Shown in pieces: positions 3,341 through 57,145 of a stretch of DNA of 64,000 nucleotides. Source of the DNA: SAR202 cluster bacterium. Its GTDB lineage: Bacteria; Chloroflexota; Dehalococcoidia; Lucifugimonadales; UBA3495. A program made the translations under genes and the position numbers. Positions within the stretch are counted from its first letter, which is position 1. Each line of letters starts with the position of its first letter. The notes under the pieces were generated by a model. The model did no database searches. It had not been told where the DNA came from and was given only the letters and a program-made list of their open reading frames with translations. The stretch covers positions 7,294 to 71,293 of the forward strand of contig VGZV01000003.1 of the NCBI GenBank assembly GCA_016872385.1, written 5' to 3'.

Positions 3341-3393
3341 GTCGGTGGCTTTCATGCCGGTCTATCTTGTACATAAGGTTCAACGCTAGCGCC

Positions 3394-4839: not shown

Positions 4840-4853
4840 AGGGCCGGATTCCC

Positions 4854-9267: not shown

Positions 9268-9298
9268 TGTCTAGAGGAGTGTTTGGTTTCCGCCCTGC

Positions 9299-23386: not shown

Positions 23387-23389
23387 CCA

Positions 23390-23912
23390 AATGTCGAAGT
23401 TGTCACCCTGAGTCCTTCGGCTGAAGGACGAAGGGTCTGGGGTGGCGGGCGTTTGCCCCACCCCAGATTCTTTTTCGTCCCAATGAAATCGGGACTCCGC
23501 AGAATGACATCCTTCATTGTTGTTAGGCACTCTTAGAGGTTGTCTAAAAAGATTGTCTCTGGTCATTGCGAGTAAAGCGAAGCAATCTTGTCCTGGGCAC
23601 GCGATTGCTTCGAGGCTACGCCCCTCGCAATGACTTTTTAAACACGCTCTTAGAGGTGTGTGACAATTCCCGCTCGTGGTGAGCCTGTCGAACCATGAGC
23701 GCCTAGCCTTTTTAGACACATTCTTAGAAGTTGTCTAAAAAGATTGTCTCTGGTCATTGCGAGTGAAGCGAAGCAATCTTGTCCTGGGCACGCGATTGCT
23801 TCGGGGCTACGCCCCTCGCAATGACTTTTTAAACACGCTTTTAGAGAGTGTGTGACAATTCCCGCTCGTGGTGAGCCTGTCGAACCACGAGCGCCTAGCC
23901 TTTTTAGACACC
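23390..23912. repeat. Family B unit followed by two tandem 191-bp family C units
   Basis: B unit at 23390-23538. The C unit (GTTGTCTAAAAAG...GTCATTGCGAG...CTCGCAATGAC...CTCGTGGTGAGCCTGTCGAACCA.GAGCGCCTAGCC...TTAGACAC) starts at 23539 and again at 23730, with only a few mismatches. Confidence 0.9.
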
Positions 23913-23915
23913 CTC

Positions 23916-24824
23916 TTAATCTGCTTTCCGCACGGCGTGGCCGCCAAACTGCTGCCGCAGCGCCGCCAGCATCCGCCCGCTCAACGGCTGCTCCTGGCGG
24001 GAGCGGAACCGCTGCTGCAATGCGGCGGTAATCACCGGCAGGGGCACCGCCAGGTCAACCGACTCCTGCACCGTCCAGCGGCCCTCGCCGGAGTCATCCA
24101 CGTAAGCCTGCAAGCTGGACAGGTCATGGTCCTCCGCTAGGGCGGCGGCGGCCAGGTCCAGCAACCAGGAGCGCACCACGCTGCCGTAGCGCCAAGTCTG
24201 GGCAATTTGGGCCAGGTCCAGCTGGAACTCTTCCTTGGCTGCCAGCAGTTCAAACCCTTCGGCGTAGGCTTGCATCAAGCCATATTCGATGCCATTGTGC
24301 ACCATCTTCACAAAATGGCCCGCTCCGCTGCTGCCCATGTAGCTGTAACCACGGTCCGGGCCTGGGGCCAGGGTCTGGAACAGCGGCTCCAGCCGCTCAA
24401 ACACTTCGCGCTTGCCGCCAATCATCAACGAATAGCCGTCCCGCAGGCCCCAGATGCCGCCGCTGGTGCCCACGTCCATAAAGTCTATGCCCAGGAGGGC
24501 CAGCCTCTGGGCGCGGGCCATGCTCTCCTTGTAGTTGGCGTTGCCCCCGTCAATCACCACGTCGCTGGGGGACAGAGCATGGGACAGGGCGTCAATGGTG
24601 GATTCGGTGGGCTGGCCTGGCGGCACCATCACCCACACCGCCCTGGGAGCCGCCAGTTGTTCCACCAGTCCGACCAGCGATGCCGCGCCCCGGGCTCCCA
24701 TGCCGGTCGTACCCTGCACCGCCTCGGCCCTGGGGTCGTAAACTACCACCTGATGCCCGCCATTTAGTAGACGCTGGGCCATGTTGCCGCCCATGCGGCC
24801 CAGGCCAATCATGCCTATTTCCAC
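23916..24824 (-). CDS. gnd: 6-phosphogluconate dehydrogenase, decarboxylating (short ~300-aa form)
   Basis: MEIGMIGLGRMGGNMAQRL Rossmann N-terminus. GHFVKMVHNGIEYGLMQAYAEG is the conserved 6PGDH signature region. Confidence 0.85.
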   Translation of the reverse strand: MEIGMIGLGRMGGNMAQRLLNGGHQVVVYDPRAEAVQGTTGMGARGAASLVGLVEQLAAPRAVWVMVPPGQPTESTIDALSHALSPSDVVIDGGNANYKESMARAQRLALLGIDFMDVGTSGGIWGLRDGYSLMIGGKREVFERLEPLFQTLAPGPDRGYSYMGSSGAGHFVKMVHNGIEYGLMQAYAEGFELLAAKEEFQLDLAQIAQTWRYGSVVRSWLLDLAAAALAEDHDLSSLQAYVDDSGEGRWTVQESVDLAVPLPVITAALQQRFRSRQEQPLSGRMLAALRQQFGGHAVRKAD

Positions 24825-26518: not shown

Positions 26519-26605
26519 TCTTCCTCATTATTATGATTGTGGCAGTATGGCCTTGCCCAAAAAGTATGGATTTCGATAGTTAGTAACGTTTTGCATACAA
26601 TTATT

Positions 26606-26702
26606 GTCACCCTGAGTCCTTCGGCTGAAGGACGAAGGGTCTAAAATGCCAGGATTTTAGATTCTTCGTCCCGATGCAATCGGGGCTCAGAATGACATTT
26701 TG
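26606..26702. repeat. Short family B unit
   Basis: GTCACCCTGAGTCCTTCGGCTGAAGGACGAAGGGTCT...TCCCGATGCAATCGGGG..CAGAATGAC. Confidence 0.8.
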
Positions 26703-30835: not shown

Positions 30836-31038
30836 GTCTGTCCTCGCGCTTGGCCCCGGCGCTCTTTGAGCTTGTTGAGAGTTTTCTCCATTACCCCAAT
30901 GCTACCTACTCGGTACAAACCTGGGCTATGGTGTCGCCCCATGAGGTCTTCGGGTGTATGCTCCCGTAGCTACTGGATCCGACATTGAAAACCAATCAAT
31001 AGGGAAATCTTCACCCGTACCTCGGTCCTCTGAAGTAA

Positions 31039-31150
31039 GAGGGTGTGTGACAATTCCCGCTCGTGGTGAGTCCCGACGTATCGGGATCCCGACCAGGTCG
31101 GGGCTTGTCGAACCACGAGCACCTAGCCTTTTTAGACACCCTCTAAGGGG
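31039..31150. repeat. Nested hairpin-module repeat (family C type)
   Basis: About 95 bp nearly identical to 10570-10660, ending in CCTAGCCTTTTTAGACACCCTCTAAG. Confidence 0.85.
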
Positions 31151-31151
31151 T

Positions 31152-31287
31152 GTTGCCTCAAAAATCTCTGAAGTCTCTGGCCGGACTTTCGGCGTTCCGG
31201 AGAAAGCTGGAACCCATATCTGGCCTAAGCCATCTTGGGCGCTGGGCGCCGGCTTCCGCTGTTGTGACCGTCAAGTTTTGAGGCAAC
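31152..31287. mobile_element. 136-bp element with perfect 12-bp terminal inverted repeats, distantly related to MITE family A
   Basis: GTTGCCTCAAAA (31152-31163) and TTTTGAGGCAAC (31276-31287). The interior shares GTTCCGG...AAGCTGGAACCCA and GGCTTCCGC with copy 52952-53081. Confidence 0.45.
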
Positions 31288-38395: not shown

Positions 38396-38519
38396 GGTCC
38401 TGGGGCCTGTGGCCTAATGCCTCGTAATTGTACCTCGTACTTGACGATTTTGTAATAAGGGAGTCAAGTTCCCTGTGGCTGCGCAGGGCTGATTCGTTTT
38501 CAACCTGGGCGCCGGCGGG

Positions 38520-38652
38520 GTAGTGGGTCAATTTGGTCTTCGTCGTTCCGGCGCAAGCCGGAACCTAGTGGCGCTTCTCATCCATATTCTTATCTGGGCA
38601 CCCCGACGAGTCGGGGTGCGATGGATGGCGCCCAAGCAAATTGAACCACTAC
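38520..38652. mobile_element. MITE-like element, family A, copy 3 (133 bp)
   Basis: TIRs GTAGTGGGTCAATTTGG / CAAATTGAACCACTAC. Internal hairpins TTCCGGCGCAAGCCGGAA and CACCCCGACGAGTCGGGGTG. CCGGCGG is present on both flanks. Confidence 0.85.
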
Positions 38653-38728
38653 TTCCGGCGGTTTTGCATTTTCCCAGGCGCTCCTTTAATATAGTGGTAT
38701 CCCCTATTTGTTTTGCTTCTGAAGAAGG

Positions 38729-45084: not shown

Positions 45085-45972
45085 ATGGGGATTCTGCTGG
45101 ACGAAAGCTCCCGCATCATGGTCCAAGGCATTACTGGCCGTGAGGGCGGGTTTCATGCCCGGGCCTGCATGGCCTATGGCACCAAAGTAGTGGCGGGCGT
45201 CACGCCGGGCAAGGGCGGTCAGGTCTTTGAGAACAAGGTGCCTGTCTTTGACTCGGTGGAAGATGCAGTGCGGGAGACTGGCGCCAACGTGGCCTTGATT
45301 TTTGTGCCGCCTCCCTTTGCCGCCGATGCCGTGGCGGAGTCCGCCGCCTGCGGCGTACCGCTCATCGCCTGCATCACGGAAGGCGTGCCGGTGCAGGACA
45401 CGGTGCGTTTGAGCCGCTATTTGGAACGCCATCCCAATGTGCGTCTCATTGGCCCCAACTGTCCCGGCCTTATTAACCCTGGGGCCAAATGCAAGGTGGG
45501 CATTATGCCCGGCAGCATCCACCGGCCCGGACGGGTGGGCGTGGTTTCTCGCAGCGGCACCCTCACCTACGAAGCGGTGTCCCAGTTGACCAACCTGGGC
45601 ATCGGCCAGTCCAGCTGCGTGGGCATTGGCGGCGACCCGGTCATTGGCACCAGTTTTGTGGAAGTCCTCAAGCTCTACAATGCCGACCCGGACACCGACA
45701 TGGTGGTCTTTATCGGGGAAATTGGCGGGTCTATGGAGCAGTCTGCCGCCGCCTACATCAAGGAGGAGTTTACCAAACCCATTTGCGTCCTCATAGTTGG
45801 GGCCACCGCGCCGGCGGGCAAGCGCATGGGCCACGCCGGGGCCATCATCACCGGTGAGAGCGCCCGCGCTGAAGCTAAAGTGGAAGCCCTGCGTCAGGCA
45901 GGCGCAGCCATTATCCCCACTCCGGCCGACATTGGCAGCACCGCCCAGGCATTGCTGCGCCGCATGCGTTAG
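45085..45972 (+). CDS. sucD: Succinyl-CoA synthetase alpha subunit
   Basis: [18 protein letters not shown] and the phosphohistidine loop GHAGAII. Confidence 0.95.
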
Positions 45973-46054
45973 GGTTGACATTCCCTGGGCATGGGGCCTA
46001 TACTCTCGCCCAAGCTGGACGCCGCCTCTGGTGGCCAGCGCCTTAACAACCCAG

Positions 46055-46225
46055 CATCACTCCCGCGGCGCCGCAAGGCTTAATAGGGAAGGCGGTATAA
46101 ATCCGCCACGGTCGCGCCACTGTATACGGGGAGTTGGCCCGCCAACATGCCACTGTGCCGATATCATCGGCATGGGAAGGCGTGGGCCAGCGTTAATCCG
46201 TGAGTCAGGAGACCTGCCCGGGATG
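46055..46225 (+). promoter_or_regulatory. Cobalamin (B12) riboswitch aptamer
   Basis: Conserved cores in the correct order: AATAGGGAA (46082-46090), GGTATAAATCC (46094-46104), GCGCCACTGTA (46114-46124), GCCACTG (46149-46155), GGGAAGGC (46174-46181), and the B12 box GAGTCAGGAGACCTGCC (46202-46218). Confidence 0.85.
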
Positions 46226-46315
46226 TGGAGTTTCACTCTGCGCCGGACAGAGACTACTCACTGGTGGCGCTATCCTTAACTGAACCTCAGCCCCACCAGC
46301 AAGATACCAGTGTTG

Positions 46316-46348
46316 AACCCTGGACAGCGCAGAGGCCAGGGTTTTTTT
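46316..46348 (+). terminator. Intrinsic terminator (likely riboswitch expression platform)
   Basis: Stem AACCCTGG (46316-46323) / CCAGGGTT (46336-46343), followed by T7 (46342-46348). Lies between the aptamer and the AAGGAGG RBS of the binding-protein gene. Confidence 0.75.
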
Positions 46349-46395
46349 ATTTGTCCGCCATGTTGGCCTGGTATGTGGGAAAAGGAGGATTTGGA

Positions 46396-48021
46396 ATGTC
46401 TGGTAAGGTTCTTGCTGCCCTGTTGTCCGCTTTAGTTGCCTTCATGGTCGTGGCCTGTGGGCCTGTTGCGGCTCCGCCCACGGTTACGCCTGCGGTTCCC
46501 GGGGACCTCCCTGCCGGAGTTACTCCAGTCGCAACACCCACGCCTGCCACTGCTCCAGCCAGGGGGGAAGTCATCCTCCGGGTGGGCGTGCCTTTGTTAC
46601 TCCAGCCGCCTGATCCCATTAAAGGCGGAGGCTTTAATGCCATTAACACCGGCCTGGGGGAGACTCTCTACAAGCTGAACAGCAAGCTGGAGCCGGAGCC
46701 CTGGCTGGCCGCCCGCGCCCGGCAGCTGGATGAAAAGACCTGGGAAATCTCTCTGCGCCAGGGCGTCAAATTCCACAATGGCGTGCCACTGGATGCCGCT
46801 AAAGTGAAAGCCTCCCTGGACCGGGCCATCGCCAAGTCTGCTACGGCTAAAGCTCTGCTTGATGCGGCACAAATTGAGGCCAAGGATGCAGTCACGCTTG
46901 TTGTCGTCACCAACAAGCCCAACCTCATATTGCCTGCCATTCTGGCAGAACCGTCCACGGTGATTGTGGAGGCGGCCGCGGCTGACGCCCTTGGCGACGC
47001 CTTTGCTGAAAAACCTGTATTGACCGGCCCATTCAAGATGGACCGGTTTCAGCAAGACAAGGAATGGTCGGTGGTGCGGCACCAAGAATAATGGGGTCAG
47101 CCACCCCAGGCAGACCGGGTGGTATTCTCGGTCCTGCCCGATAACACTACCCGCGTCCTGAGCCTGCAAAGCGGTGACATTGATATTGCCCACTACGTGG
47201 CGCCGGAAAGCGTAGCCACCCTGAACACATCTAGCAACTTGGCGGTTGCTACTGCGCCGCCGGTGGCCCTGGCGTACATGTACATTAACCACCGGCGCGG
47301 GCCATGGCAGGATTTGCGGGTGCGTCAGGCCATTGCCCAAGCCGTTGACCGGGAGGCGTTGGTGCGGGCGGTGATGCAGGGGCAAGCCATTGCTGCCACT
47401 GGCCCCTTTCCGCCGTCGGTACTGGACTGTGGCAGCCGGGTGAAGGGCCAGCCCTTCAATCCGGGCCAAGCCAGGCAGTTGCTGGCCCAGGCAGGCTACC
47501 AGGACAGTTCTGGCGACGGCTACCTGGATAAGGACGGCCAGACCCTGGTCATGACCCTGGTTACTTACCGCCAGCGCCCGGAACTGGTGCCCATAGCCGA
47601 GACTATCCAGGCCAGCCTTAAAAACATTTGCATCAAGGTGGAAGTGCGGATGGTGGAGAACATCAACAACGCGCTGGCCCAGTCCGACTGGGACGGTGGA
47701 ATGTACTTCAATAACATGGCCACCACCGGAGACCCCTACTGGGGGCTTTCCCAGTTCTTTGTAACTGGCGGCCCCGCCAACCGCGGGGGATTCAGCAGTG
47801 CAAAGGTGGATGCCCTGGCCCAGCAAGTATCCCAAACTTCCCTTCGCCAGACTCGCCAGCAGCTAGCCTGTGAAGCATCCCAGGCGGTGGTGGACGAGGT
47901 AGCCACCGTTCCTCTTCTGTACCCGAATTTTAATTACGGCGTATCCAGGCAGGTGACTGGGTTTGGCAGTCCCCATCCCTTCTTCCTTTATTTCCTGGAT
48001 TCAACTCTCGGCAAGCGCTGA
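46396..48021 (+). pseudogene. ABC transporter substrate-binding lipoprotein, family 5 (NikA/OppA/DppA type), interrupted by an in-frame TAA
   Basis: AAGGAGG RBS, signal peptide with lipobox VVAC, and family-5 pattern (PWLAARARQLDEKTWEISLRQGVKFHNG). The 46225 and 47119 ORFs are in the same frame, separated only by TAA at 47089-47091 within ...VVRHQE*WGQPPQADRVVFSVLPDN, where homologues have YWG. Confidence 0.8.
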
Positions 48022-48044
48022 ACTCTGTCGAAAGGAGCCCCTCA

Positions 48045-48984
48045 ATGAAGCCATTTGCGTTGGGTTTAGGACTTTCGCTTATTTTGGCTGCCCTGCTGGC
48101 GGCTGCCTGCGGCCCCACCGCAACGTCTCCCACGGCAGCGCCTGGGCCTGCCGCTACGCCCGCAGGTGTAGCGACTGCTCCAAAAAATGCGACGCTGGTG
48201 GTGGGCCTTCCCTTTATCAGCCAGCCGCCGGACCCAGTGCGTGGCGGGTTTCAGCCGGTCCAAACTGGCGTCGCTGAAACCCTTTTCAAGCTAGGCAGAG
48301 ACCTCAAGCCGGAGCCCTGGCTGGCCACCGGCGCCCGCCAGCTGGATGACAAGACCTGGGAGATTGCCTTGCGTCAGGGCGTCAAGTTCCATGATGGCGC
48401 GGTCATGGACGCAGCGGCGGTCAAGGCTTCCCTGGCCAGGCGGCTGCTGGCGGAGGCGGGATGGGTGGACGCTGACGGCGACGGAGTGCTGGACAAGAAC
48501 GGCCAACCGTTGGCGCTGAAGCTGCTCACTTACAAGCAGCGCCCGGAGCTTCCCCCATGGCTGAGGCCATTCAAGGGGCGCTAAAGGCTGTGGGCGTCAA
48601 AGTAAACGTGGTCACGGTGGAACAGATTGACCCGGCCTTGAAGCAAGGCGACTGGGACGGGGTCATGTACTTTACAACTATGGGTATTTCCGGCGACCCG
48701 TACCTGAACATTGCCCAGTACTTCACCACAGGCGGCGGCGCCAACTTTGGCGGGTACTCCAGTCCCTCGGTGGACCAGGGGGCCTCGCGCTTGAGCGTGG
48801 CTGCGGTAGGCACGGGCGGACGCAACTGGCTTGTGAAGCATCGCGGGCCATTGTGGAGGAGGTGGCTATTGTACCCCTCCTGTACCCCAACTTCCTCTTT
48901 GGAGTTTCCAGCAAGGTCACGGGTTTTGATGCGCCGCACCCCTTTTCTTGGTACTTCATAGACAACCGGCTGGGGAAGCGGTAA
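48045..48984 (+). pseudogene. Decayed paralogue of the family-5 substrate-binding lipoprotein
   Basis: Signal peptide with lipobox AAAC. Aligns to the upstream gene but lacks the equivalent of about 46820-47470 (about 217 codons; junction near 48435). Frame changes at the C5 run 48552-48556 and again near 48800-48825. The last frame ends ...PLLYPNFLFGVSSKVTGFDAPHPFSWYFIDNRLGKR*. Confidence 0.75.
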
Positions 48985-49088
48985 CTTGGGCGCATACTTT
49001 GCCTGCTGGTTGGCGGCCGGGGTTTATCAGTGCGCGACGATCTCTATCCCCGGCCGCCTTGGGGACAGCGGTATAGGAAAGTGAAGGA

Positions 49089-49937
49089 ATGAGCCTTAGG
49101 CCGTTGGGTTTGGACTCCACCGGGCATCCCTTGGTTGAAAGCATGGTTCGCGCCGCGAAGCTGGGGGCGCCCTTCGCCCTGCCGGTGCGTGACGCCGCCG
49201 AAGAGGGCTGGCTGGAGGCCCGCGTCCTGTTTCAGGGGCAAGACCAGGTCCTGGGTGACATGGCGCTGGCCTACGGGCGGGAGCGTTGGGAGTCGTCCAA
49301 TCCCCATGTGGCTGGGTCTGCCTTTCTCATTGCCTACCTGACCCGCGTTATCTGGCCAGTGGTGGGCCAGTACGTGCGCGAGCGGCGGCTGCCCAAGGTC
49401 ACCCTGGACAATCTCTCCCTGCACCGGGATGGTGAGCGCATTGTGGGCACGGCGCTCAATCGTCCCCTTTTTGCCGTGCTGCCCGGCGACCCGGCGGCCG
49501 GCCACCCCGACGCCCAGGTGGCGCCGGACCAGCAGGCCCTCTACGCCTTGCTGAAGCAGTGGCTTTTTGAGGAGAACCTCAGCATGGTAGTCCCGGCCCT
49601 GCACCGGGCGGCCCGCGCCAGCTACCCGGTCTCCCGCAATGCGGTGGCCGCCTCCTTTGCCCAGGCTTTTCACTGGCTGTCTTACGGCGGCGGAGATGCC
49701 CAAGGGCTGCTGCGGGAGGCCCAACGTTTCTTTGCGGATCCTGCTTCTCCCCTGTTCCGGCAGGCAACGGTGGAACTGTTGGAGCAGGATGGCAGGCGGG
49801 GCTTGTTTGCCCGGCGGGCGGGGTGCTGCCTGTGGTGGCGCTCGCCCCGGGCCACGGACTACTGCTCCAACTGCATCCTGGTGCCCAGGGAAGAACAGAC
49901 CCGCCGCTTCCTGGAGTTGCTGGCGGGCGGGAACTGA
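49089..49937 (+). CDS. FhuF-like (2Fe-2S)-binding protein / putative ferric-chelate reductase family
   Basis: 282 aa. The C-terminal cysteine cluster GCCLWWRSPRATDYCSNCILV (CC-x11-C-x2-C) resembles the FhuF C-terminal Fe-S motif. Confidence 0.6.
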   Translation: MSLRPLGLDSTGHPLVESMVRAAKLGAPFALPVRDAAEEGWLEARVLFQGQDQVLGDMALAYGRERWESSNPHVAGSAFLIAYLTRVIWPVVGQYVRERRLPKVTLDNLSLHRDGERIVGTALNRPLFAVLPGDPAAGHPDAQVAPDQQALYALLKQWLFEENLSMVVPALHRAARASYPVSRNAVAASFAQAFHWLSYGGGDAQGLLREAQRFFADPASPLFRQATVELLEQDGRRGLFARRAGCCLWWRSPRATDYCSNCILVPREEQTRRFLELLAGGN

Positions 49938-49941
49938 GGCG

Positions 49942-50889
49942 TTGCACAACTACCTGGCCCGCCGCCTGCTAACCGTGCCTTTGCTGCTGCTGGGCATCTC
50001 CCTAATTACCTTTACCTTGCTGAACCTGGCTCCAGGCGATCCTGCCGACATCTTGCTGCGCTTGCAGAACCCTGGTGTGGAGCCTCCCCGGGAGGCGGTG
50101 CTGGCCTTTCGTCGCGAATTGGGGCTGGATGACCCGCTGTGGACCCGGTACAGCCGCTGGCTGGGCCAGGCGCTCATGGGTGATTTGGGCGTCTCCTACC
50201 GCACCGGCGGCCCCATTGTCAGCGAGCTGGCCCAGCGCCTGCCTGCCACCCTGTTGCTGGCAGGGGCCAGCCTGGGTTTGGCGGTGCTTCTGGGGATTCC
50301 CCTGGGCATTCTGGCCGCAGTTTTTAAAGGCTCCCCGATGGATGGCATGGCAAGACTGTTGGCCTTGGCGGGAGCCACGGTGCCCAGCTACGTGCTGTCC
50401 CTGCTCCTGATTCTGGCCTTTGCCGTTACCCTCCACTGGCTGCCTGCCATTGGGTACGGCGGTATCCGCCACCTGGTCATGCCTGCCGTGGCCTTGTCCG
50501 CTGGGCTGGCGGCCCAGTTGATGCGGCTCAGCCGCGCCAGCCTGCTGGAAACATTGACCCAGGACTACATGCGCACCGCCAGGGCTAAAGGCCTGCGAGA
50601 GCGGACCGTGGTGCTGCGCCACGGTTTCAAGAATGCCCTGCTGCCGGTAGTCACCATTACCGGAATCGGGATGGGCCACTTGCTGGGTGGAGCGGTAATA
50701 GTAGAGACCATTTTTGGCTGGCCGGGGGTGGGCAAGTACGCCGTGGACGCCATCTTCCTCCGGGACTACCCGGTGGTGCAGGCCGTGGTGCTTTACCTGG
50801 CGGTAATCTTTCTGCTGGTGAACTTTGGGGTGGACGTGGTGTACCGCTGGCTGGACCCGCGCTTGGACTTTGCCGGGCGGGCGGGTTAG
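49942..50889 (+). CDS. ABC transporter permease (DppB/NikB/OppB type)
   Basis: The tracked ORF (49639) overlaps the upstream gene. An in-frame TTG at 49942 follows the FhuF-like stop. N-terminus HNYLARRLLTVPLLLLGISLITFTLLNLAPGDP and an EAA-loop region (YMRTARAKGL). Confidence 0.85.
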   Translation: MHNYLARRLLTVPLLLLGISLITFTLLNLAPGDPADILLRLQNPGVEPPREAVLAFRRELGLDDPLWTRYSRWLGQALMGDLGVSYRTGGPIVSELAQRLPATLLLAGASLGLAVLLGIPLGILAAVFKGSPMDGMARLLALAGATVPSYVLSLLLILAFAVTLHWLPAIGYGGIRHLVMPAVALSAGLAAQLMRLSRASLLETLTQDYMRTARAKGLRERTVVLRHGFKNALLPVVTITGIGMGHLLGGAVIVETIFGWPGVGKYAVDAIFLRDYPVVQAVVLYLAVIFLLVNFGVDVVYRWLDPRLDFAGRAG

Positions 50890-50898
50890 GGCCGCCTG

Positions 50899-51756
50899 AT
50901 GCCACAGCCGCTGCAACGGTTTTTGCGAGACCCTTCGGCGTTGCTGGGGTTGGCCATAATTACTGTGGCGGCGGCGGCGGCGCTGCTGGCCCCATTGCTG
51001 GCTCCCCAGGGCCCGACGCTGGTGGACCTGGAGCGGCGGCTGGCCTCGCCAGACAGGCACTTCTGGCTGGGCGCCGACCATCTGGGCCGGGACGTGCTTA
51101 GCCGCGTGCTGTATGGCGCACGTACCACCCTGGGGGCCGCCGGGCTTACATTATCGGTAATCATGGTTATCGCCGTTCTCGTGGGTATCCTGGCCGGTTA
51201 CCACGGCGGCTGGCTGGACACCATGCTAATGGCGCTGGCGGACTTACTGCTGGCTTTTCCTGCCCTGGTGCTGGCCCTGGCCATTGCCGGAACGCTGGGG
51301 CCGAGCCTGCTTAACGTGATGATGGCGGTGGCGCTGGTCTGGTGGGCAGGTTACGCCCGGCTAATTCGGGGTATGGTGTTGTCGGTGCGGCAGCGGGAGT
51401 TTGTGGAGGCGGCGCGGGCCGTGGGCGCTGGCGACTGGCGCATTATGGTGCATCACGTGCTGCGGAACATCCTTGGGCCGATGGTGGTGCTGGTCACCCT
51501 GGACATGGGTCTGATTATCCTGGGGTTGTCCGGCTTGAGTTTCCTGGGCCTTGGCAGCCAGCCTCCCACGCCGGAATGGGGCGCTATGCTCAACGACGGC
51601 CGCCCCTTTCTCCAGTCAGCGCCGCGGCTGATGCTGTATCCAGGCGCAGCCATCTGCCTGGTGGTGCTTGGCTTCAACCTGCTGGGTGATGGCCTCCGGG
51701 ATTTGCTGGACCCCACGGTTGTTCATGGGTGGAAATCCCCGCGTCGCCCGGGGTAA
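50899..51756 (+). CDS. ABC transporter permease (DppC/NikC/OppC type)
   Basis: 285 aa. HFWLGADHLGRDVLSRVLYGAR and EFVEAARAVGAG (EAA loop). Confidence 0.85.
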   Translation: MPQPLQRFLRDPSALLGLAIITVAAAAALLAPLLAPQGPTLVDLERRLASPDRHFWLGADHLGRDVLSRVLYGARTTLGAAGLTLSVIMVIAVLVGILAGYHGGWLDTMLMALADLLLAFPALVLALAIAGTLGPSLLNVMMAVALVWWAGYARLIRGMVLSVRQREFVEAARAVGAGDWRIMVHHVLRNILGPMVVLVTLDMGLIILGLSGLSFLGLGSQPPTPEWGAMLNDGRPFLQSAPRLMLYPGAAICLVVLGFNLLGDGLRDLLDPTVVHGWKSPRRPG

Positions 51757-51759
51757 TAC

Positions 51760-52905
51760 TCACGCCTTAACATGCTCAGCCCCGGCAGCCGCCGCCCGCG
51801 CAATTTCCTCCACCGCCAGGTCAATTTCCGCGTCAGTAGTGTAGCGGCCCACAGAGAAGCGCAGAGTCCCCATAGCATAGTCCAGGGGCACGTTCATGGC
51901 CTTGAGCACGTCGGATATGGATACCTGGTCACTGTGGCAGGCCGCTCCCGCCGATGCCGCCACTCCCCGCAGGCGCGCCAGCACTTCGTTGGCCTTTTCC
52001 CCCCGGAGGCTGATGCTGGAGGTATTGGGGAGGCGGAGGGTTGGGTGGCCGTTGACTCGCAGGTCTGGGAAGCGGCGGCGCAGCCCCTGCTCCAGCCGGT
52101 CGCGCATCCGGCCCATGCCAGACTGGTATTCCTCCAGGTGGCGGCTAATCAATTCGCATGCCTGCCCCAGCCCAACCACTTCAATCACGTTTTCCGTTCC
52201 GGCCCGCCAGCCCATCTCGTGGCTGGCCCCGTGCATCTGCTTCTCCAGTTTGATGCCGCTCCTGACGTATAGCGCGCCTACGCCCTTGGGAGCGTACAGC
52301 TTGTGCCCGGCCACGGAAAGCAAGCCCACCCCCAGGTCATCTACGTTGACCGGAATCTTGCCGATGGACTGGGCGCAGTCGCTGTGGACTATCACGCCAT
52401 GCCGGTGGGCAATGTCGGCAATCTGCCGGATGGGCTGGATGGTTCCCACCTCGTTATTGGCGTGCATGACGGTGACCAGGATGGTGCGGGGCGTAATGGC
52501 CCGCTCCACCGCAGCCGGGTCCACCATGCCGTACTGGTCCACCGGCAGGTACGTTACGGCACAGCCCTGAGTCTCCAGGTGCTTGCAGACTTCGATGACT
52601 GCGGGATGCTCCACGGCGGAAGTGATAATGTGGTTGCCGCGGCTCCGGTATGCTCCAGCCACGCCCTTGATGGCGTAGTTGTTGGCTTCGGTGCCGCCGC
52701 TGGTGAAGACCACCTCCTGGGGAACTGCCCCCAGCAGGGCGGCTACCTGGCCGCGGGCCTGCTCCACCGCCTGTTTGGCGGCTGCGCCGAAGGAGTGGCC
52801 GCTGGAGGGGTTGCCGAAATAGCTGTGGATGTAGGGCAGCATGGCTTGCGCCACCTGCGGGTCAATGGGCGTTGTTGCATTGTAGTCTAGGTAAATTTCA
52901 GCCAT
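51760..52905 (-). CDS. Cysteine desulfurase (NifS/IscS-like, class V aminotransferase)
   Basis: IYLDYNATTP N-terminus, PLP lysine in SVAGHKLYAPKGVGALY, catalytic cysteine in SAGAACHS. Confidence 0.9.
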   Translation of the reverse strand: MAEIYLDYNATTPIDPQVAQAMLPYIHSYFGNPSSGHSFGAAAKQAVEQARGQVAALLGAVPQEVVFTSGGTEANNYAIKGVAGAYRSRGNHIITSAVEHPAVIEVCKHLETQGCAVTYLPVDQYGMVDPAAVERAITPRTILVTVMHANNEVGTIQPIRQIADIAHRHGVIVHSDCAQSIGKIPVNVDDLGVGLLSVAGHKLYAPKGVGALYVRSGIKLEKQMHGASHEMGWRAGTENVIEVVGLGQACELISRHLEEYQSGMGRMRDRLEQGLRRRFPDLRVNGHPTLRLPNTSSISLRGEKANEVLARLRGVAASAGAACHSDQVSISDVLKAMNVPLDYAMGTLRFSVGRYTTDAEIDLAVEEIARAAAAGAEHVKA

Positions 52906-52951
52906 GCTGCACCCCCTTTCCTTCCCCCTTTCCCAAGCCGCCCTGGTCTTG

Positions 52952-53081
52952 GTAGTGGGTCAATTTGGTCTTTGTCGTTCCGGCCCAAGCTGGAACCCAA
53001 TGGCGCCCCTCGTCCATATCTTTATCTGGGCACTGGCTTCCGCCGGTGCAACGGATGGCGCCTAAGCAAACTGACCTCTAC
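52952..53081. mobile_element. MITE-like element, family A, copy 4 (about 130 bp)
   Basis: GTAGTGGGTCAATTTGG ... CAAACTGACCTCTAC. Flanked by a perfect 12-bp direct repeat CCCTGGTCTTGG (52941-52952 and 53081-53092). Confidence 0.8.
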
Positions 53082-53426
53082 CCTGGTCTTGGCATACGGG
53101 TTCCGGTATATTGCGGCATGGTCTGATTGTATCCCTGCCTCGACCGCAGTCAATACCGCAACCTAAGCGAAAAGACCCTTATCCTTGTCGTCAGGCACCT
53201 CCGGCCAAGGGGAAGTCCCTACCTCAAAAAAGGTGTATCGCCTCTTAGCTTTAGTTGCTGGTCTATCTACTCTTTAATTAGCCGGAATTTCAGTTGCCGG
53301 GACGCGGCCCGCTTGCGCCGATTCCCCTGCCGCGGGCCGCAGGGTTGGAGCCATACTGCTGCTTTCCGGCAATATCCTTTCCGCCGGCTCTCGACCAGGG
53401 GAAAGGACCGGCCGGAGGGCAAGATT

Positions 53427-54649
53427 ATGAGCGTGCTAGTAGTGGATGACACGGTAGAAGTGCGTCAGGCCATTGTAGCCATGCTTAAAAGCGCGTGCTA
53501 CAAGGACATTGCCACTGTGTCATCAGCCGTTGAAGCCCTGGCGTTTCTCGGCATTCCCGACAAGCTACACGAACCGTGTTCCGTGGAACTGGTGTTGATG
53601 GATGTAAACATGCCCGGCATAGATGGACTGGAGGGATGCCGCCGCATTAAAGCCGCGCCGGAACGCAAGGACATTCCAGTAATTGTTCTCACTGGAAACA
53701 GAGACCCAGGCATCCTGCAAGCATCCTTCACTGCTGGAGCATCGGACTATCTTGCCAAGCCCCCCCATCCTTTGGAGTTGCTAGCCCGCGTCAAGTCGGC
53801 CCTCGGCCTTAAGCGGGAGATGGACCACCGGAAACTGGCCCATATTTCTGACTTGGAAAACAAGAACCGGGAACTGGAAGTGGCCTACCGGCAGCTGGAG
53901 GCAAAAAACCGCGAGCTGGAGGAAGCCTCCATTGCCAAGACCCAGATTCTTTCCACCGCTACCCACGAGCTAAAGACGCCCCTGACCAGCATGTAGGATA
54001 TGTGGACCGCCTGCTGCACCAGCAGTCCACCGTGGGGGCCCTTAACGAAAGGCAACTGCGGTATCTGGAAACCGTCCAGAAGAACTCCTACCGCCTCAAG
54101 GTGCTGCTGAATGATTTGCTGGATGTTTCCCGCATTGAGGCTGGCAGCCTGGAACTGAAGCTGGAGGCAGTGGACGTGGGCCGGGAAGTGGAAGAGGTGG
54201 TGACGTCCATGCAAACTCAGATTCGCCAGAAGCAGACCCAGGTGTCGGCGGACATTCCTGTTGGGAAGTACCTCGTCAGGGGTGACCGGCTCCGGTTCAG
54301 CCAGGTTATTACCAACCTTCTGAGCAATGCCGTCAAGTATTCCCCTGCCGGGGCGGCGGTGACCCTATCCGCATCCCATGCGGACGGCAATGTGGAGGTG
54401 CGCGTGGCCGATGCGGGCATAGGTATATCGGCGGACAACCAGGCCAGGCTGTTTACCAAGTTTTTCCGGGTGGACAACACCTCAACGCGCCAGGAGTCCG
54501 GCACCGGCCTGGGTCTTTACATAACCAAGCATCTGGTAGAAGCCCACGGGGGCGCAATTCAGGTGGAAAGCCAGGAAGGCAAGGGCACCTCCATGCGACT
54601 GCTCTGGCCCCAGGCAGGGGCTGAGGCAGCTGGCGCCTTGGCGGCGTGA
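53427..54649 (+). pseudogene. Hybrid REC-HisKA-HATPase histidine kinase, interrupted by a 1-nt frameshift in the H box
   Basis: GGAGGG RBS. REC domain (MSVLVVDD, LVLMDVNMPGIDG), coiled coil, H box STATHELKTPLTSM*. A shift near 53991 restores ...LTS(I)VGYVDRLL and continues into the 54002-54649 ORF, which has N, G1 and G2 boxes (NLLSNAVKY, DAGIGI, GTGLGL). Confidence 0.8.
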
Positions 54650-54689
54650 ACAGAACAGCGCGCCAACAGCTTCTTGGACTGCCGCGACA

Positions 54690-54790
54690 GTAGGAGTCTT
54701 TGCGACATTCCCGATCGTGGTGAGCATATCGAACCATGAGCGAGTCAGGGTCAGCTCATCCTTCCACAAGCTCTGGTTGAGCGGCCAATG
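54690..54790. repeat. Degenerate hairpin-module repeat
   Basis: GATCGTGGTGAGCATATCGAACCATGAGCG resembles the CTCGTGGTGAGCCTGTCGAACCACGAGCG module. Confidence 0.5.
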
Positions 54791-54863
54791 TGAATGGCAA
54801 TTCTCACCTGCGCAGTAAGAAACCTGGACCTTTGGCAACTACTCTCTACCGGGGAAGGTTAAC

Positions 54864-56081
54864 ATGCGGAAGAACCTAGTGCTGGTTGCGGAAGATGAGG
54901 ATGACATCCGGACTCTGCTGGCAGACACCCTTGCCGATGCGGGTTTTGATGTCATTCAGGCCCAGGACGGCAGCATTGCGCTGGAAAAAATCCGCTATGA
55001 GCACCCGGATATCGTCCTGCTGGATGTTTGGATGCCGGTGATGGGCGGGTTTGAAGTGTTAAAGAAGCTCCGTGACGATCCGGAAACCAAAGATTTGCCA
55101 GTGGTGATTCTTACCGCCCTTAATGCCCTGGAGGGTGAAAAATCCAGCATGGACCTGGGGGTTACGCACTATATGACGAAGCCCTTGGACTTCGGAGTGC
55201 TGGAGGCCACCTTGCGGGTGGTGGTGCGGGAAAGCCAACGGGAGAACGACGTGGAGGAGACCAGCACCAACGCCGATGAGGCTACGGTGCAGAGCGCCAA
55301 TTCCAAGTTGTTCAATTCCAGCGGAAAGATAGCCTCTTTACGCACTGGCCGCAAAGACGCTGAGGAAGGGAGTAAGGAAAAGGTTCTAGCCATCCGCACG
55401 GCGGACAAGCTGGCAGCCCTGGAACAGAAGCTGGGGGGCGGCATGCCTTTCAACACGGTGACGCTGGTGGAAGGCGCAGCCTCTTCTGGGAAGAGCATCC
55501 TGTGCCAGCATTTCATCTATGGAGCGCTGGAGGGTGGCGTGGACACCACCTACTTCACCTCAGAACATTCTGAAAAGTCTCTGATAACTCAGATGAGTTC
55601 CTTAGGCCTGGACGTTTCAGCCCATTTGCGCAGTGGCCGCCTGCAAGTTTACGGCGTGCCGGAGCCTAAAGAGGGAGAAAGCCCAGAGCCGCTGCTGGCC
55701 AGCCTGGCCCAAGCCATGGAAGCCCTGCCCGTGCGGCAAAAATTCATTGTGGTGGACTCCATCACTGACCTGGCTGGTTCCAGCTCAGAGAGCGCCGTAA
55801 TTGCCTTCTTTACCTCCTGCCGCCGCATGTCCAACAAGGGCAGGACGGTGCTGGTTTCCATCCACTCCTACGCCTTTGGCGCTGAAATGTTCAACCGGCT
55901 GCGCAGCCTCTGCGACGGCTACTTGAGCCTCCGGTCAGAAACGGTGGCGGCCAAAGCAGTAAAGACACTGGAAGTGCGCAAAATGAAGGCCAATGACCTC
56001 ACCACTAACAATACCGTGAGCGTAGAAATAGTGCCCCTAACGGGGATGAAGCTCTTGCCGATTTCCCGCACCAAGGCTTAA
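54864..56081 (+). CDS. Response-regulator receiver domain fused to a KaiC/FlaH(ArlH)/RecA-like ATPase domain
   Basis: N-terminal REC (LVLVAEDEDDIR, IVLLDVWMPVMGG, YMTKP), an acidic/Ser-rich linker of about 60 aa, then LEQKLGGGMPFNTVTLVEGAASSGKSILCQHFIYGAL (Walker A) and KFIVVDSITDL (Walker B), as in KaiC-like/FlaH proteins. Confidence 0.7.
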   Translation: MRKNLVLVAEDEDDIRTLLADTLADAGFDVIQAQDGSIALEKIRYEHPDIVLLDVWMPVMGGFEVLKKLRDDPETKDLPVVILTALNALEGEKSSMDLGVTHYMTKPLDFGVLEATLRVVVRESQRENDVEETSTNADEATVQSANSKLFNSSGKIASLRTGRKDAEEGSKEKVLAIRTADKLAALEQKLGGGMPFNTVTLVEGAASSGKSILCQHFIYGALEGGVDTTYFTSEHSEKSLITQMSSLGLDVSAHLRSGRLQVYGVPEPKEGESPEPLLASLAQAMEALPVRQKFIVVDSITDLAGSSSESAVIAFFTSCRRMSNKGRTVLVSIHSYAFGAEMFNRLRSLCDGYLSLRSETVAAKAVKTLEVRKMKANDLTTNNTVSVEIVPLTGMKLLPISRTKA

Positions 56082-56087
56082 CCAGGC

Positions 56088-56486
56088 ATGGAGGAAGCTA
56101 TGAGTAAAGTGCTGGTGGTGGAGGATGAGGCGGACATTCGGGAACTACTGGCCGATACCCTTGCCGACGCCGGATATCAAGTGGTGCAGGCCACTGACGG
56201 CGGGGAAGGTTTGACCTGTGCCCTTACCAAGAACCCGGACGTGGTCTTGTTGGACGTGATGATGCCGGTGCTGGATGGCTTCCAGGTGCTGGAGCAACTG
56301 AAGGGTAACGCCGGAACTAGCAAGTTGCCAGTCATCATGGTCAGCGCCCGCGGGCAGGAGGCCGAAGTCCAGAAAGCCTTGCAAGCCGGCGCCTTTGCCT
56401 ACATTATCAAACCCTGGTTGGCCAACGAGGTAGAGGCCAAAGTGCGGGAGGCCCTGCATTCATCTCCGGCGCAGGCTGGTCTCTGA
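56088..56486 (+). CDS. Single-domain (CheY-like) response regulator
   Basis: KVLVVEDEADIRE, VVLLDVMMPVLDG and AYIIKP. Starts 6 nt after the REC-ATPase gene. Confidence 0.9.
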   Translation: MEEAMSKVLVVEDEADIRELLADTLADAGYQVVQATDGGEGLTCALTKNPDVVLLDVMMPVLDGFQVLEQLKGNAGTSKLPVIMVSARGQEAEVQKALQAGAFAYIIKPWLANEVEAKVREALHSSPAQAGL

Positions 56487-56565
56487 GGAGTGGGCAGAAC
56501 GGATGTCTGGAGCGGCTAAAGCAAATTGAATTGGGGTGGTGTTTAATGCACCACCCCAGTAAACA

Positions 56566-56855
56566 CCTCTCAGAGGGTGTCTAAAAAGGCTAGGCGCTCG
56601 TGGTTCGACAGGCTCACCACGAGCGGTCCTTCAGCCGAAGGACGCTCATCCTGAGCTTGTCGAAGGATGAGCGGTGGTAGTGCACAGCACTTTTGAGACA
56701 CATTCTCAGACCTTGTGCTAAAAGGTAGTTAATACTTCCAGGCTCACCCTTCGACACGCTCAGAGCCTGCCCTGAGCAAGCCGAAGGGGTGAGGGGTTTT
56801 TCCCGCTCGTGGTGAGCTTGTCGAACCATGCGCGGCCACTTTTGACACAGGTTCT
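56566..56855. repeat. Composite array of hairpin modules
   Basis: Reverse copies of the TTAGACAC..., CTCGTGGT..ACCACGAG, GTCCTTCAGCCGAAGGAC and CATCCTGAGCTTGTCGAAGGATGAGCG modules. Confidence 0.8.
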
Positions 56856-57145
56856 CAGAACCAGATGCAGGTGACTGTGTTGGTAATGCCCTTGATGGCC
56901 CTTATCTTATTCCGTAGTACAGTCGTGATGTCTTCTTGAGTATCAACCTCCAGTTCCACCACCACGTCATAGGGACCCAGCACTTCCCGAACCACCGTTC
57001 CGGGGATGGCGCGGAGTTGTTCCACCACATGCATTGTCCGCGCCGGTTCAACGTTGACCAGAATGTAAGCGTTGGCCGCCATCTTCCTGACTCCGGCCCT
57101 AAAAAGAATGTCACCACCCGTCCCTCGCCGGAGTTCCTCCGCCAT
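56855..57145 (-). CDS. Stand-alone Lrp/AsnC ligand-binding (RAM-like) domain protein
   Basis: MAANAYILVNVEPARTMHVVEQLRAIPGTVVREVLGPYDVVVELEV pattern. The likely start is the internal M at 57082, giving about 75 aa. Confidence 0.6.
   Translation of the reverse strand: MAEELRRGTGGDILFRAGVRKMAANAYILVNVEPARTMHVVEQLRAIPGTVVREVLGPYDVVVELEVDTQEDITTVLRNKIRAIKGITNTVTCIWF

Follow-up and report, generated by a model that had tools for sequence, protein, structure and literature searches.

A full-length class-I cobalamin riboswitch heads an operon of Nik-like transport genes and a FhuF-fold gene in a SAR202 cluster bacterium, and the linkage between this riboswitch and these genes is conserved across related loci, in some of which the same genes are also linked to B12 genes. 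The analysis covered a 64,000-nucleotide stretch of one contig, referred to here as the window, together with related loci from other genomes. Taken alone, the riboswitch is a textbook example, and predictions of Nik-type transporters under B12 control go back twenty years; in its original form, the observation is not surprising. The partner that is both conserved and novel is not the transporter but the FhuF-like gene. In dozens of genomes from uncultured Dehalococcoidia this gene is the most consistent cobalamin-riboswitch target, and it is repeatedly accompanied by genes of cobaltochelatase and of ChuX/HutX-like proteins and by a Nik-like importer. We consider it rather probable that the operon is repressed by B12 and combines cobalt supply with a cobalt-directed reductase. 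In addition, the window appears to record the decay of the uptake part of this system, whose riboswitch and reductase-like gene persist.

The riboswitch and its expression platform

The aptamer occupies positions 46049-46235 of the plus strand and includes a P6 extension and the B12 box. In an Rfam cmscan, the Cobalamin model RF00174 matched it over its entire length (model positions 1-189 of 189) with 108.4 bits (E = 3.4e-26), far over the gathering score of 31.5, which confirms the first-pass annotation of a cobalamin riboswitch at this site. RF00174 was the sole Rfam match of the cmscan in the whole window and the best family within clan CL00101, and a lineage-specific model, R1, scored the aptamer at 157.8 bits. 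All core motifs quoted in that annotation are present in the order given there. The ligand is probably adenosylcobalamin (AdoCbl). Approximately 45 nt 5' of the aptamer lies a sigma-70-like site, TTGACA-18 nt-TATACT (45975-46004, plus strand), whose hexamers agree with the consensus in 11 of 12 positions, compared with an average of 0.2 such sites in shuffled sequences; judged by this match, it is a putative promoter.

Further downstream, an intrinsic terminator had been annotated as a GC stem and T7 at 46316-46348. The hairpin and U7 are indeed found, at 46316-46350 (plus strand), where AACCCUGG and CCAGGGUU fold into a stem around a 12-nt loop. A consensus terminator scan of 45800-46500 returned no match because the scanner only allows loops of 3-8 nt. 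An equivalent GC hairpin followed by a U-run is present in 21 of 21 related leaders examined, and the stems show compensatory changes between leaders (CCCUGG/CCAGGG vs CCCCGG/CCGGGG). These changes were taken from the explicit stems; the MAFFT alignment set the terminator arm of the window one column off register.

The terminator loop contains GCGCAGAG (46327-46334), a sequence able to pair with CUCUGCGC (46236-46243). The latter lies directly 3' of the aptamer, where a short hairpin, CUCUG-CGCCGGA-CAGAG (46236-46252, plus strand), is a candidate P13/L13 and, by analogy with the known class-I architecture, may serve as the kissing-loop partner. The 5' strand of this hairpin doubles as the 5' strand of the antiterminator, and the hairpin takes part in both alternative folds. 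For the segment 46232-46350, the fold of minimum free energy is the antiterminator with -37.3 kcal/mol, compared with -35.3 kcal/mol for the hairpin plus terminator. For the longer piece 46225-46400, the terminator is favoured instead because a GGAGU/ACUCU pairing with the 3' end of the aptamer competes, and the outcome hence depends on the 5' boundary chosen. The terminator and the two alternative folds are shown by the folding analysis. The exact antiterminator is predicted from thermodynamics and from invariant sequence: ACUCUGCGC..ACAGAG does not vary in 8 homologous leaders, and the invariance of the antiterminator and P13-like sequences in these leaders leaves no covariation for the antiterminator.

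Taken together, the region most likely constitutes a transcriptional OFF switch. Transcribed from the promoter near 45975-46004, the class-I riboswitch would control an operon of approximately 5.4 kb (46396-51756). Without B12, the CUCUGCGC segment would pair with GCGCAGAG in the terminator to form the antiterminator, and RNA polymerase would read through. Upon binding of B12, the segment would be held in the hairpin adjacent to the aptamer, the terminator and U7 would form, and transcription would stop before the ribosome-binding site. This site, AAGGAGG, is read from the sequence at 46382-46388 (plus strand), 7 nt before the ATG at 46396-46398; both had been annotated in the same way.

A Nik-like operon with a probably decaying uptake part

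The operon comprises, in this order, a NikA-like lipoprotein substrate-binding protein (SBP), a decayed SBP duplicate, a FhuF-fold protein, a NikB-like permease and a NikC-like permease. The gaps between the intact genes are short, as in a single operon, and no convincing internal terminator or plus-strand promoter was found in 47900-53200. A convergent class-V aminotransferase gene (51760-52905, minus strand) follows the last operon gene. This cysteine-desulfurase-like neighbour was considered as a conserved partner and rejected, as matches reach only approximately 29% identity and occur in few loci. The gene families initially assigned to the operon, namely a family-5 SBP, a FhuF-like protein and Dpp-type permeases, hold true; the SBP reading frame, however, is broken, a second SBP is present as a remnant, and there is no ABC ATPase gene.

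The gene of the NikA-related family-5 SBP (46396-48021, plus strand; lipobox VVAC) contains an in-frame TAA at 47089-47091 and is probably a pseudogene. The Pfam SBP_bac_5 match continues across the stop without a break (profile positions 137 to 141), and orthologs carry Tyr or His at this position. The same SBP fragment is called on 4 contigs, and one of these (L076) is 100% identical over 20.9 kb, including the TAA. A one-off assembly error is therefore unlikely, the same TAA being present in another assembly from samples that may be related and not fully independent. Selenocysteine incorporation or programmed read-through was likewise set aside, as the codon is TAA and not TGA and replaces a conserved Tyr. 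The tandem paralog that follows (48045-48981, plus strand) retains the lipoprotein signal and shows an internal loss of approximately 210 codons together with two or more frameshifts. It matches positions 1-46 and then 304-366 of the Pfam profile, its tblastn pieces lie in different frames, and its DNA is 75.6% identical to 46660-46819. With a nonsense codon in the SBP gene and only a remnant left of its paralog, uptake has probably been lost, or is being lost, in this organism; what remains intact is the riboswitch together with the FhuF-like gene and both permeases.

The FhuF-fold protein (49089-49937, plus strand) is a putative [2Fe-2S] reductase with 220 homologs. Its AF2 model (pLDDT 86.6) has as its top PDB match E. 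coli FhuF (7qp5; E = 2e-5, TM 0.58/0.66), with which it shares only 14% sequence identity. Both proteins have a four-Cys C-terminal motif, here putatively of the 2Fe-2S type, and both genes adjoin those of an ABC importer, for a metal chelate in E. coli and putatively so here. The cysteine spacing is CC-x11-C-x2-C here, one spacer residue more than the CC-x10-C-x2-C of E. coli FhuF, and C246, C247, C259 and C262 are invariant in 19 sequences. The profile PF11575 matches weakly (14.4 bits vs a cutoff of 20.5). PF06276 (FhuF) gives no match on the window protein; it is precomputed for about half of the homologs and marked 'weak' for the one in L004.

The NikB-like permease (49942-50889, plus strand; BPD_transp_1) begins with a TTG 4 nt after the stop of the FhuF-like gene, and the NikC-like permease (50899-51756, plus strand; OppC_N and BPD_transp_1) is the last gene of the operon. 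The former reaches 365 bits against NF045470 Opp2B (cutoff 350) and 317.8 against TIGR02789 nikB (cutoff 447); the latter reaches 321.9 bits against NF045474 Opp2C (cutoff 300) and 333.3 against TIGR02790 nikC (cutoff 358.45). NikD/NikE-type ATPase genes, searched for as reading frames with Walker A and LSGGQ motifs, were not found near the module, in the window or at any related locus. The search was validated on a MalK fragment and on the only ABC ATPase of the window, which is of the ABC-2 type and lies at approximately 17293. The ATPases serving the NikB/NikC-like permeases would be encoded elsewhere. A riboswitch-controlled importer without an ATPase gene has been described in Chloroflexi, where RibXY takes up riboflavin under an FMN riboswitch (Sun 2013, PMC3766115). 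RibXY and the present operon have in common an SBP and permease under riboswitch control in Chloroflexi, but differ in the riboswitch, the transporter family and the substrate.

The transporter family had further been described as one not normally linked to B12, which was overstated. NikABC(DE) operons under B12 riboswitches, predicted to encode cobalt importers, have been reported both in Clostridium tetani and in Desulfitobacterium hafniense (Rodionov 2006, cited by Zhang 2009, PMC2667541), and the RegPrecise tables list 'nikABC-dppDD-metE' of Clostridium bolteae under a cobalamin riboswitch (Sun et al. 2013, PMC3766115 supplement). Like the present operon, they have a cobalamin riboswitch directly 5' of the genes for a family-5 SBP and a pair of Dpp/Nik-type permeases, and they follow the logic of B12-repressed uptake in the service of B12 supply. 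The likeness is one of gene content: the clostridial and Desulfitobacterium operons have two ATPase genes and no FhuF-like gene, whereas the operon described here belongs to Dehalococcoidia, lacks ATPase genes, contains a FhuF-fold gene and has an inactivated SBP. To our knowledge, none of these B12-regulated Nik systems of Clostridia and Desulfitobacterium has been tested experimentally. The SBP and permeases of E. coli NikABCDE come from the same peptide/nickel ABC branch; that system, however, is regulated by NikR without a riboswitch and includes NikD and NikE, which are absent here.

Linkage across related Dehalococcoidia

Among 66 related FhuF-like loci of Dehalococcoidia, which form our comparative set, a cobalamin riboswitch heads the FhuF-like operon in 32, and in approximately 15 of those it precedes the FhuF-like gene alone. 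Most deep branches of the family tree include riboswitch-linked members. One half of the FhuF-like family lacks a riboswitch, and a clade of 22 DUF7676-FhuF-like loci has neither riboswitch nor B12 neighbours. As for the transporter, the riboswitch precedes the module in L004, L006, L030, L033, L043, L048, L065 and L079. Conservation at orthologous loci had been suggested as a check, and the riboswitch is present at 8/8 transporter-containing loci with intact upstream sequence, as well as at L079.

This conservation bears on the possibility that an ordinary nickel or peptide ABC transporter lies 3' of the riboswitch by chance, or that the riboswitch is a leftover that regulates nothing, which we regard as very improbable. 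Such an explanation would suit an SBP that is a generic family-5 protein (its JGI name is 'peptide/nickel transport system substrate-binding protein') and whose gene is broken in this genome, and it would suit a Chloroflexia SBP ortholog (L078) that has neither the riboswitch nor a FhuF-like gene. It is at odds with the linkage of riboswitch and module among loci whose proteins are only 27-61% identical, with a 108-bit aptamer accompanied by an intact terminator, RBS and promoter, with the two riboswitches of some loci, of which one precedes the SBP and the other the FhuF-like gene, and with the B12 biosynthesis neighbours at other loci.

These neighbours are most evident in L004, L043 and L048, where one riboswitch precedes a tetrapyrrole methylase-CobN-ChuX-like(-CbtA) operon and another precedes SBP-NikB-NikC-FhuF-like-ChlID. 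In L006, the order is FhuF-like-SBP-NikBC-ChuX-like-CbiA..CobA..CobT. An assignment of the CobN protein as an HmuS-type haem dechelatase was considered and set aside, as its operon has a cobalamin riboswitch and a corrin methylase at its head and includes CbtA. At many loci the FhuF-like gene is found together with genes for proteins of the ChuX_HutX/HemS/DUF7676 type, and the reading frames often overlap. In the window, there are no genes for ChuX-like or DUF7676 proteins, CobN, ChlID, CbiA, CobA or CbtA, nor are there any other cob/cbi genes.

An iron or siderophore context was not found for the FhuF-like gene, its neighbours being B12 or ChuX-like genes. In contrast to E. coli FhuF, the FhuF-like gene here is under the control of a B12 riboswitch, not of iron/Fur, and at related loci it is accompanied by cobaltochelatase and ChuX-like genes, not by siderophore genes. 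No B12 link for the FhuF-fold Fe-S family is described in the literature searched. A side observation concerns CbtA, the gene of a cobalt transporter, which is found in the same cluster in L048 and L069; a second Co2+ importer would be partly redundant there, which speaks against the cobalt-supply model. The lack of cob/cbi genes in the window, the riboswitch-free half of the FhuF-like family and the L078 ortholog likewise count against it.

Proposed cobalt supply, corrinoids and the putative reductase

According to the model that we favour, the module would be confined to Dehalococcoidia (Chloroflexota) and linked to the synthesis of B12 de novo along the CobN route. The CobN/ChlID cobaltochelatase would receive its cobalt from the transporter, which would take it up, probably as a chelate. 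The FhuF-like protein may be a cobalt-directed reductase acting on a Co(III) chelate, on a Co(III) corrinoid or on what the chelatase produces. Either cobalt or a corrinoid may be the transported substrate, and cobalt is the one that we propose. The role assigned at the outset, uptake of cobalt, a cobalt chelate or a corrinoid precursor, is a sensible inference for the module; in this genome, with a broken SBP and a remnant of its paralog, uptake itself has probably been lost or is being lost. An SBP-dependent cobalt ABC importer repressed via an AdoCbl riboswitch, CbtJKL, is known from Sinorhizobium meliloti (PMC7689651). It differs in that CbtJ is BtuF-like and not of family 5, and in having its own ATPase and no reductase partner.

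Homology to the nickel/cobalt branch is seen in the permeases, which pass the NCBIfam nickel-permease cutoffs NF045470 and NF045474, and in the SBP, which resembles nickel-binding proteins in overall sequence. The best PDB matches of the SBP are 3t66 (1e-54) and SaNikA (5e-43); its scores remain under the equivalog cutoffs, with 352.8 bits against NF045468 Opp5A_nikA (cutoff 600) and 181.6 bits against TIGR02294 (cutoff 393). Neither the SBP nor its orthologs have any of the E. coli NikA residues Arg97, Trp100, Arg137, Trp398, Tyr402 and His416. At the positions of Arg97, Arg137, Tyr402 and His416, the ligand-site residues used as discriminators by Zhang 2009, the SBP of the window carries A, E, G and G, and none of the four NikA residues is conserved in 12 orthologs. 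Identity to E. coli NikA is only approximately 25%, but the register of this comparison has the support of DP and P anchors flanking these positions. Because the chelate and metal residues of NikA are absent and the SBP stays under the equivalog cutoffs, cobalt binding is unsupported at the residue level.

The ligand site and the neighbouring genes also bear on a different proposal, namely that the module salvages corrinoids (cobalamin, cobinamide or another cobalt-tetrapyrrole) with parts of the haem-uptake type. The SBP would bind a corrinoid in the way HbpA, DppA or NikA bind haem, the ChuX/HutX-like protein would be the cytoplasmic carrier, and the FhuF-like protein would reduce Co(III) to Co(II) before adenosylation. 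We regard this as rather unlikely. The missing NikA metal-chelate residues fit it, as do a score for haem-binding HbpA (114 bits) that nearly equals that for E. coli NikA (117 bits), the report that E. coli NikA binds haem (PMC2667541) and the ChuX_HutX/HemS/DUF7676 companions of the FhuF-like gene. So do the CobA/BtuR adenosyltransferase and CobT adjoining the module in L006, the approximately 15 genomes in which the FhuF-like gene alone is under the riboswitch, which implies a role that needs no transporter, and the lesson of CbtJKL that SBP family membership can mispredict the substrate (PMC7689651). By contrast, the permeases pass the nickel-permease cutoffs NF045470 and NF045474, and the transporter of L004, L043 and L048 shares an operon with ChlID and adjoins CobN, the cobalt-insertion step of de novo synthesis. 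Furthermore, the published B12-regulated precedents of the Nik type are assigned to cobalt, and the window has no ChuX-like gene. The established corrinoid importers BtuFCD, ECF-CbrT and BtuM stand outside the Opp/Dpp/Nik family, in which we know of no corrinoid importer. As a separate observation, the ChuX/HutX/HemS-like tetrapyrrole binders and the HbpA score would fit a corrinoid as the substrate, contrary to the model of cobalt supply.

The same gene neighbourhoods are relevant to a further proposal, which retains cobalt import and assigns the FhuF-like protein to biosynthesis, as a replacement of CobR, the cob(II)yrinic acid a,c-diamide reductase. The protein would act after chelation by CobN/ChlID and before adenosylation by CobA/CobO, and the ChuX-like proteins would carry the corrinoids. 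CobR has been described in very few organisms. The SBP-NikB-NikC-FhuF-like-ChlID arrangement beside CobN-ChuX-like in L004, L043 and L048 agrees with such a role, as does CobA near the module in L006; a monocistronic riboswitch-FhuF-like unit is common, as expected of a pathway enzyme, and riboswitch-linked members occupy most deep branches of the family. Nevertheless, the FhuF family is known for ferric-siderophore reductases, with no member known to act on corrinoids, and the 22-locus DUF7676-FhuF-like clade has neither riboswitch nor B12 neighbours. We judge this assignment improbable.

Returning to cobalt supply with a cobalt-directed reductase, a broader proposal can be put forward tentatively, with somewhat less than even confidence. 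Dehalococcoidia, including SAR202-type and sponge-associated lineages, may have co-opted parts of iron acquisition for cobalt, the FhuF-like protein being a riboswitch-controlled, cobalt-centred reductase that is often found together with a Nik-like importer and a binder of the ChuX/HutX type. Its role would be either to release cobalt from imported Co(III) chelates in 'siderophore style' or to act as the long-missing cob(II)yrinic acid a,c-diamide or cob(III)alamin reductase of organisms with the CobN route. Should this cobalt-directed role hold, the protein would close a gap either in the use of the strongly complexed cobalt, probably Co(III), of natural waters or in the CobN pathway, as the reducer of cobalt corrinoids; either way, it would constitute a new enzyme class in B12 and cobalt metabolism. 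The loci described here provide a concrete set of proteins for expression and testing.

A cobalamin riboswitch and its predicted switch

The sole Rfam match in the entire 64-kb window is RF00174 (Cobalamin) at 46049-46235 (+), which covers model positions 1-189 of 189 at 108.4 bits (gathering score, 31.5; E = 3.4e-26) and is the top-scoring family of its clan at this position. All aptamer motifs quoted in the first-pass annotation were found in the order claimed, as were the terminator platform (46316-46350), the AAGGAGG (46382-46388) and the ATG start codon at 46396. Upstream lies a sigma-70-like promoter (45975-46004; TTGACA, 18 nt, TATACT; 11/12 matches). The terminator hairpin consists of AACCCUGG, a 12-nt loop and CCAGGGUU followed by U7, and was overlooked by a consensus scanner because the scanner's loop limit is 8 nt. 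A GC-rich hairpin and U-run between aptamer and start codon occur in all 21 related leaders examined, eight of which are clearly homologous to that of the window, and the terminator stems vary by compensatory changes (CCCUGG/CCAGGG in the window versus CCCCGG/CCGGGG in the related locus L033). In another locus, L047, a tandem array with units of roughly 23 nt (GCGGGAATGACGYGTGCCTGC; about 9190-9420) separates the riboswitch terminator from the DUF7676 start codon.

The unconstrained minimum-energy fold of 46232-46350 (-37.3 kcal/mol) is an antiterminator, in which CUCUGCGC (46236-43, directly 3' of the aptamer) pairs with GCGCAGAG (46327-34, within the terminator). The alternative fold combines a short hairpin (46236-52) with the terminator (-35.3 kcal/mol), and the outcome of folding varies with the 5' boundary chosen. 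The two folds are nearly isoenergetic and mutually exclusive, as a transcriptional OFF switch requires. The short hairpin lies where class-I riboswitches carry the L13 kissing-loop partner; B12 binding would fix this hairpin, and the terminator would then be free to form. The switching sequences are invariant across the eight homologous leaders and therefore permit no covariation test. A transcriptional OFF switch is the most likely mechanism predicted from these folds, and we firmly conclude that the operon is a member of the B12 regulon, predicted to be turned off by B12.

A transporter without an ATPase gene and with a decaying binding protein

The riboswitch precedes genes for a NikA-related family-5 lipoprotein substrate-binding protein (SBP; 46396-48021), a second, decayed SBP copy (48045-48981), an FhuF-like protein (49089-49937, +), a NikB-like permease (49942-50889) and a NikC-like permease (50899-51756), with no convincing terminator or plus-strand promoter in the operon interior. 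The first-pass annotation regarded this transporter family as not normally linked to B12. This central surprise is already known from published precedents (Zhang et al.; Sun et al., 2013), such as 'nikABC-dppDD-metE' of Clostridium bolteae, which the RegPrecise tables assign to a cobalamin riboswitch (Sun et al., 2013; PMC3766115). The riboswitch is of a standard kind, and the transporter class has precedents. No ABC ATPase gene was found 3' of the permeases in the window, and none of the related loci has one closer than 10 kb to the module; RibXY of Chloroflexi, likewise under a riboswitch, is a published example of an importer whose operon includes no ATPase gene (PMC3766115).

The earlier gene description overlooked that the SBP frame is broken by an in-frame TAA (47089-47091, context HQE*WG). 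The Pfam match continues unbroken across this codon, and orthologs carry Tyr, once His, at its position (EYWG, DYWG, NYW, DHWG), which makes it a nonsense change of a conserved Tyr codon. A 300-aa C-terminal SBP fragment is gene-called on four contigs; the one of these that was examined, L076 (85 kb, from another assembly, JGI 3300020193), matches the window at 100% identity over 20.9 kb and shares the TAA. Furthermore, the second copy, 75.6% identical in DNA to window 46660-46819, retains the lipoprotein signal, lacks about 210 codons and contains at least two frameshifts. It follows that this organism probably has no working binding component; the FhuF-like, NikB and NikC genes appear intact. 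In four related loci, the riboswitch and FhuF-like gene are followed only by short NikB or NikC remnants (L012 3637-3837; L067 5696-5896; L023 10953-11063; L028 11646-12026), so that in other lineages this decay has gone further. Loss of the transporter has occurred repeatedly, with the riboswitch and FhuF-like gene retained.

Just 3' of the operon, at 53127-56486, the L076 gene calls comprise a response regulator, a HisKA/HATPase kinase, a fusion of a response regulator with a KaiC-like ATPase (PF06745) and a further response regulator. The window also contains several families of short dispersed repeats (about 50-170 nt), which lie mostly between genes, share 75-100% identity and occur in either orientation (4853-5010, 6083-6386, 10449-10651, 23380-23918, 26605-26698, 31036-31154 and 56562-56860, and further at 1544-1685, 38518-38655 and 52951-53081); they may be shared regulatory regions or elements of the REP or MITE type.

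The FhuF-like family and its riboswitches

Nearly all of the 220 detectable homologs of the FhuF-like protein come from uncultured Dehalococcoidia/Chloroflexota, SAR202 and sponge-associated MAGs among them. The closest match to the window copy is 67% identical among metagenome sequences and 58% among named genomes; its lineage is therefore poorly represented. All four cysteines of the C-terminal CC-x11-C-x2-C motif are invariant in 19 sequences of the family. The Pfam match of the window copy is weak; its AlphaFold model (pLDDT 86.6) has as top PDB match the crystal structure of E. coli FhuF (7qp5; TM 0.58/0.66, 14% identity), followed by C-terminal domains of NIS siderophore synthetases. The window copy is a distant FhuF-fold protein and at most a candidate ferric reductase. 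Three loci carry the gene split over two reading frames (L063 10001-10824; L069 7720-8515; L070 10001-10833), either as pseudogenes or through indel errors of long-read assemblies.

Gene order in related loci was mapped by tblastn, and riboswitches were searched with Rfam and with a covariance model made for this lineage from 13 aptamers. Wherever a transporter-containing locus has its upstream sequence intact, a cobalamin riboswitch stands at its head (the window, L004, L006, L030, L033, L043, L048 and L065, plus L079), and its retention at orthologous loci, proposed earlier as a check, is thereby borne out. In L030 (9724-9916), L031 (1375-1567) and L033 (9721-9914), an extra riboswitch lies inside the module immediately 5' of the FhuF-like gene, which thus has a B12 switch separate from that of the SBP/permease genes. 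In about 15 genomes the riboswitch controls a monocistronic FhuF-like gene, and four loci show the order riboswitch, DUF7676, FhuF-like. Altogether, the FhuF-like gene is under a riboswitch in 32 of 66 loci. On a neighbour-joining tree these genes sit on most deep branches, and those without a riboswitch fall into a small number of derived clades, of which the largest comprises 22 DUF7676-FhuF-like pairs. A link of the SBP subfamily to B12 is confined to loci that also have the FhuF-like gene. In L078 (9001-12390; Chloroflexia bacterium SDU3-3), an SBP ortholog (48% identical) and NikB-/NikC-like permeases are preceded by a class-III aminotransferase gene; this module has no ATPase genes, riboswitch or FhuF-like gene.

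The interest stems from a B12-riboswitch-controlled FhuF-like family found by comparison, not from the riboswitch-transporter pairing. What is new is the conserved reductase-like partner, the ATPase-less architecture and, in this window, the decaying binding-protein gene. In a literature search with most subscription journals outside its coverage, and hence weak as evidence of absence, no paper connected cobalamin riboswitches with FhuF-like or ChuX/HutX-like proteins. A Roseiflexus operon listed by Sun et al. (2013), 'RoseRS_3103-RoseRS_3102-00-cobN-RoseRS_3098', might be related.

Links to B12 biosynthesis and the transported substrate

In L004, L043 and L048, a first riboswitch precedes genes for a tetrapyrrole methylase, the cobaltochelatase CobN and a ChuX-like protein, and a second precedes SBP-NikB-NikC-FhuF-like-ChlI/D, an operon that in L048 begins with DUF7676-FhuF-like. 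The predicted cobalt transporter subunit CbtA is added to the first operon in L048 (2315-9100) and to its counterpart in L069 (358-7269), both directly 5' of the riboswitch-FhuF-like module. The L006 locus runs riboswitch, FhuF-like, SBP, NikB, NikC, ChuX_HutX-like, CbiA, then CobA/BtuR and CobT. The window itself contains no CobN, ChlI/D, ChuX-like, DUF7676, CbiA, CobA or CbtA gene. In L004, a DDE transposase gene (2433-4214) interrupts the cobaltochelatase cluster between CobN and the ChuX-like gene.

The permeases exceed the NCBIfam nickel-permease cutoffs (Opp2B, 365 versus 350; Opp2C, 321.9 versus 300); the top NCBIfam family of the SBP, Opp5A_nikA, scores 352.8 bits, under the cutoff of 600. 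Its nearest solved relatives are nickel-binding proteins (3t66, 1e-54; S. aureus NikA, 5e-43), and its matches to E. coli NikA (about 7e-33) and haem-binding HbpA (5e-32) are near-equal. This nickel/cobalt-branch homology, together with co-transcription with cobaltochelatase subunits and the published precedents, leads us to favour cobalt, possibly chelated, by a modest preference. However, none of the ligand-site residues of E. coli NikA (Arg97, Trp100, Arg137, Trp398, Tyr402, His416) is kept in the SBP, CbtA is already encoded in two clusters, and tetrapyrrole-binding ChuX/HutX/HemS-like proteins accompany the FhuF-like gene; a corrinoid is a possible, if less probable, substrate, and anything else is improbable. 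CbtJKL cautions that SBP family is no guide to substrate (PMC7689651). The cobalt, cobalt-chelate or corrinoid link drawn in the first-pass annotation therefore remains sensible, without the novelty it gave the transporter family. Fold, cysteine motif and gene context suggest that the FhuF-like protein is a cobalt-directed reductase, with a Co(III) chelate, cob(III)alamin and cob(II)yrinic acid a,c-diamide as candidate substrates.
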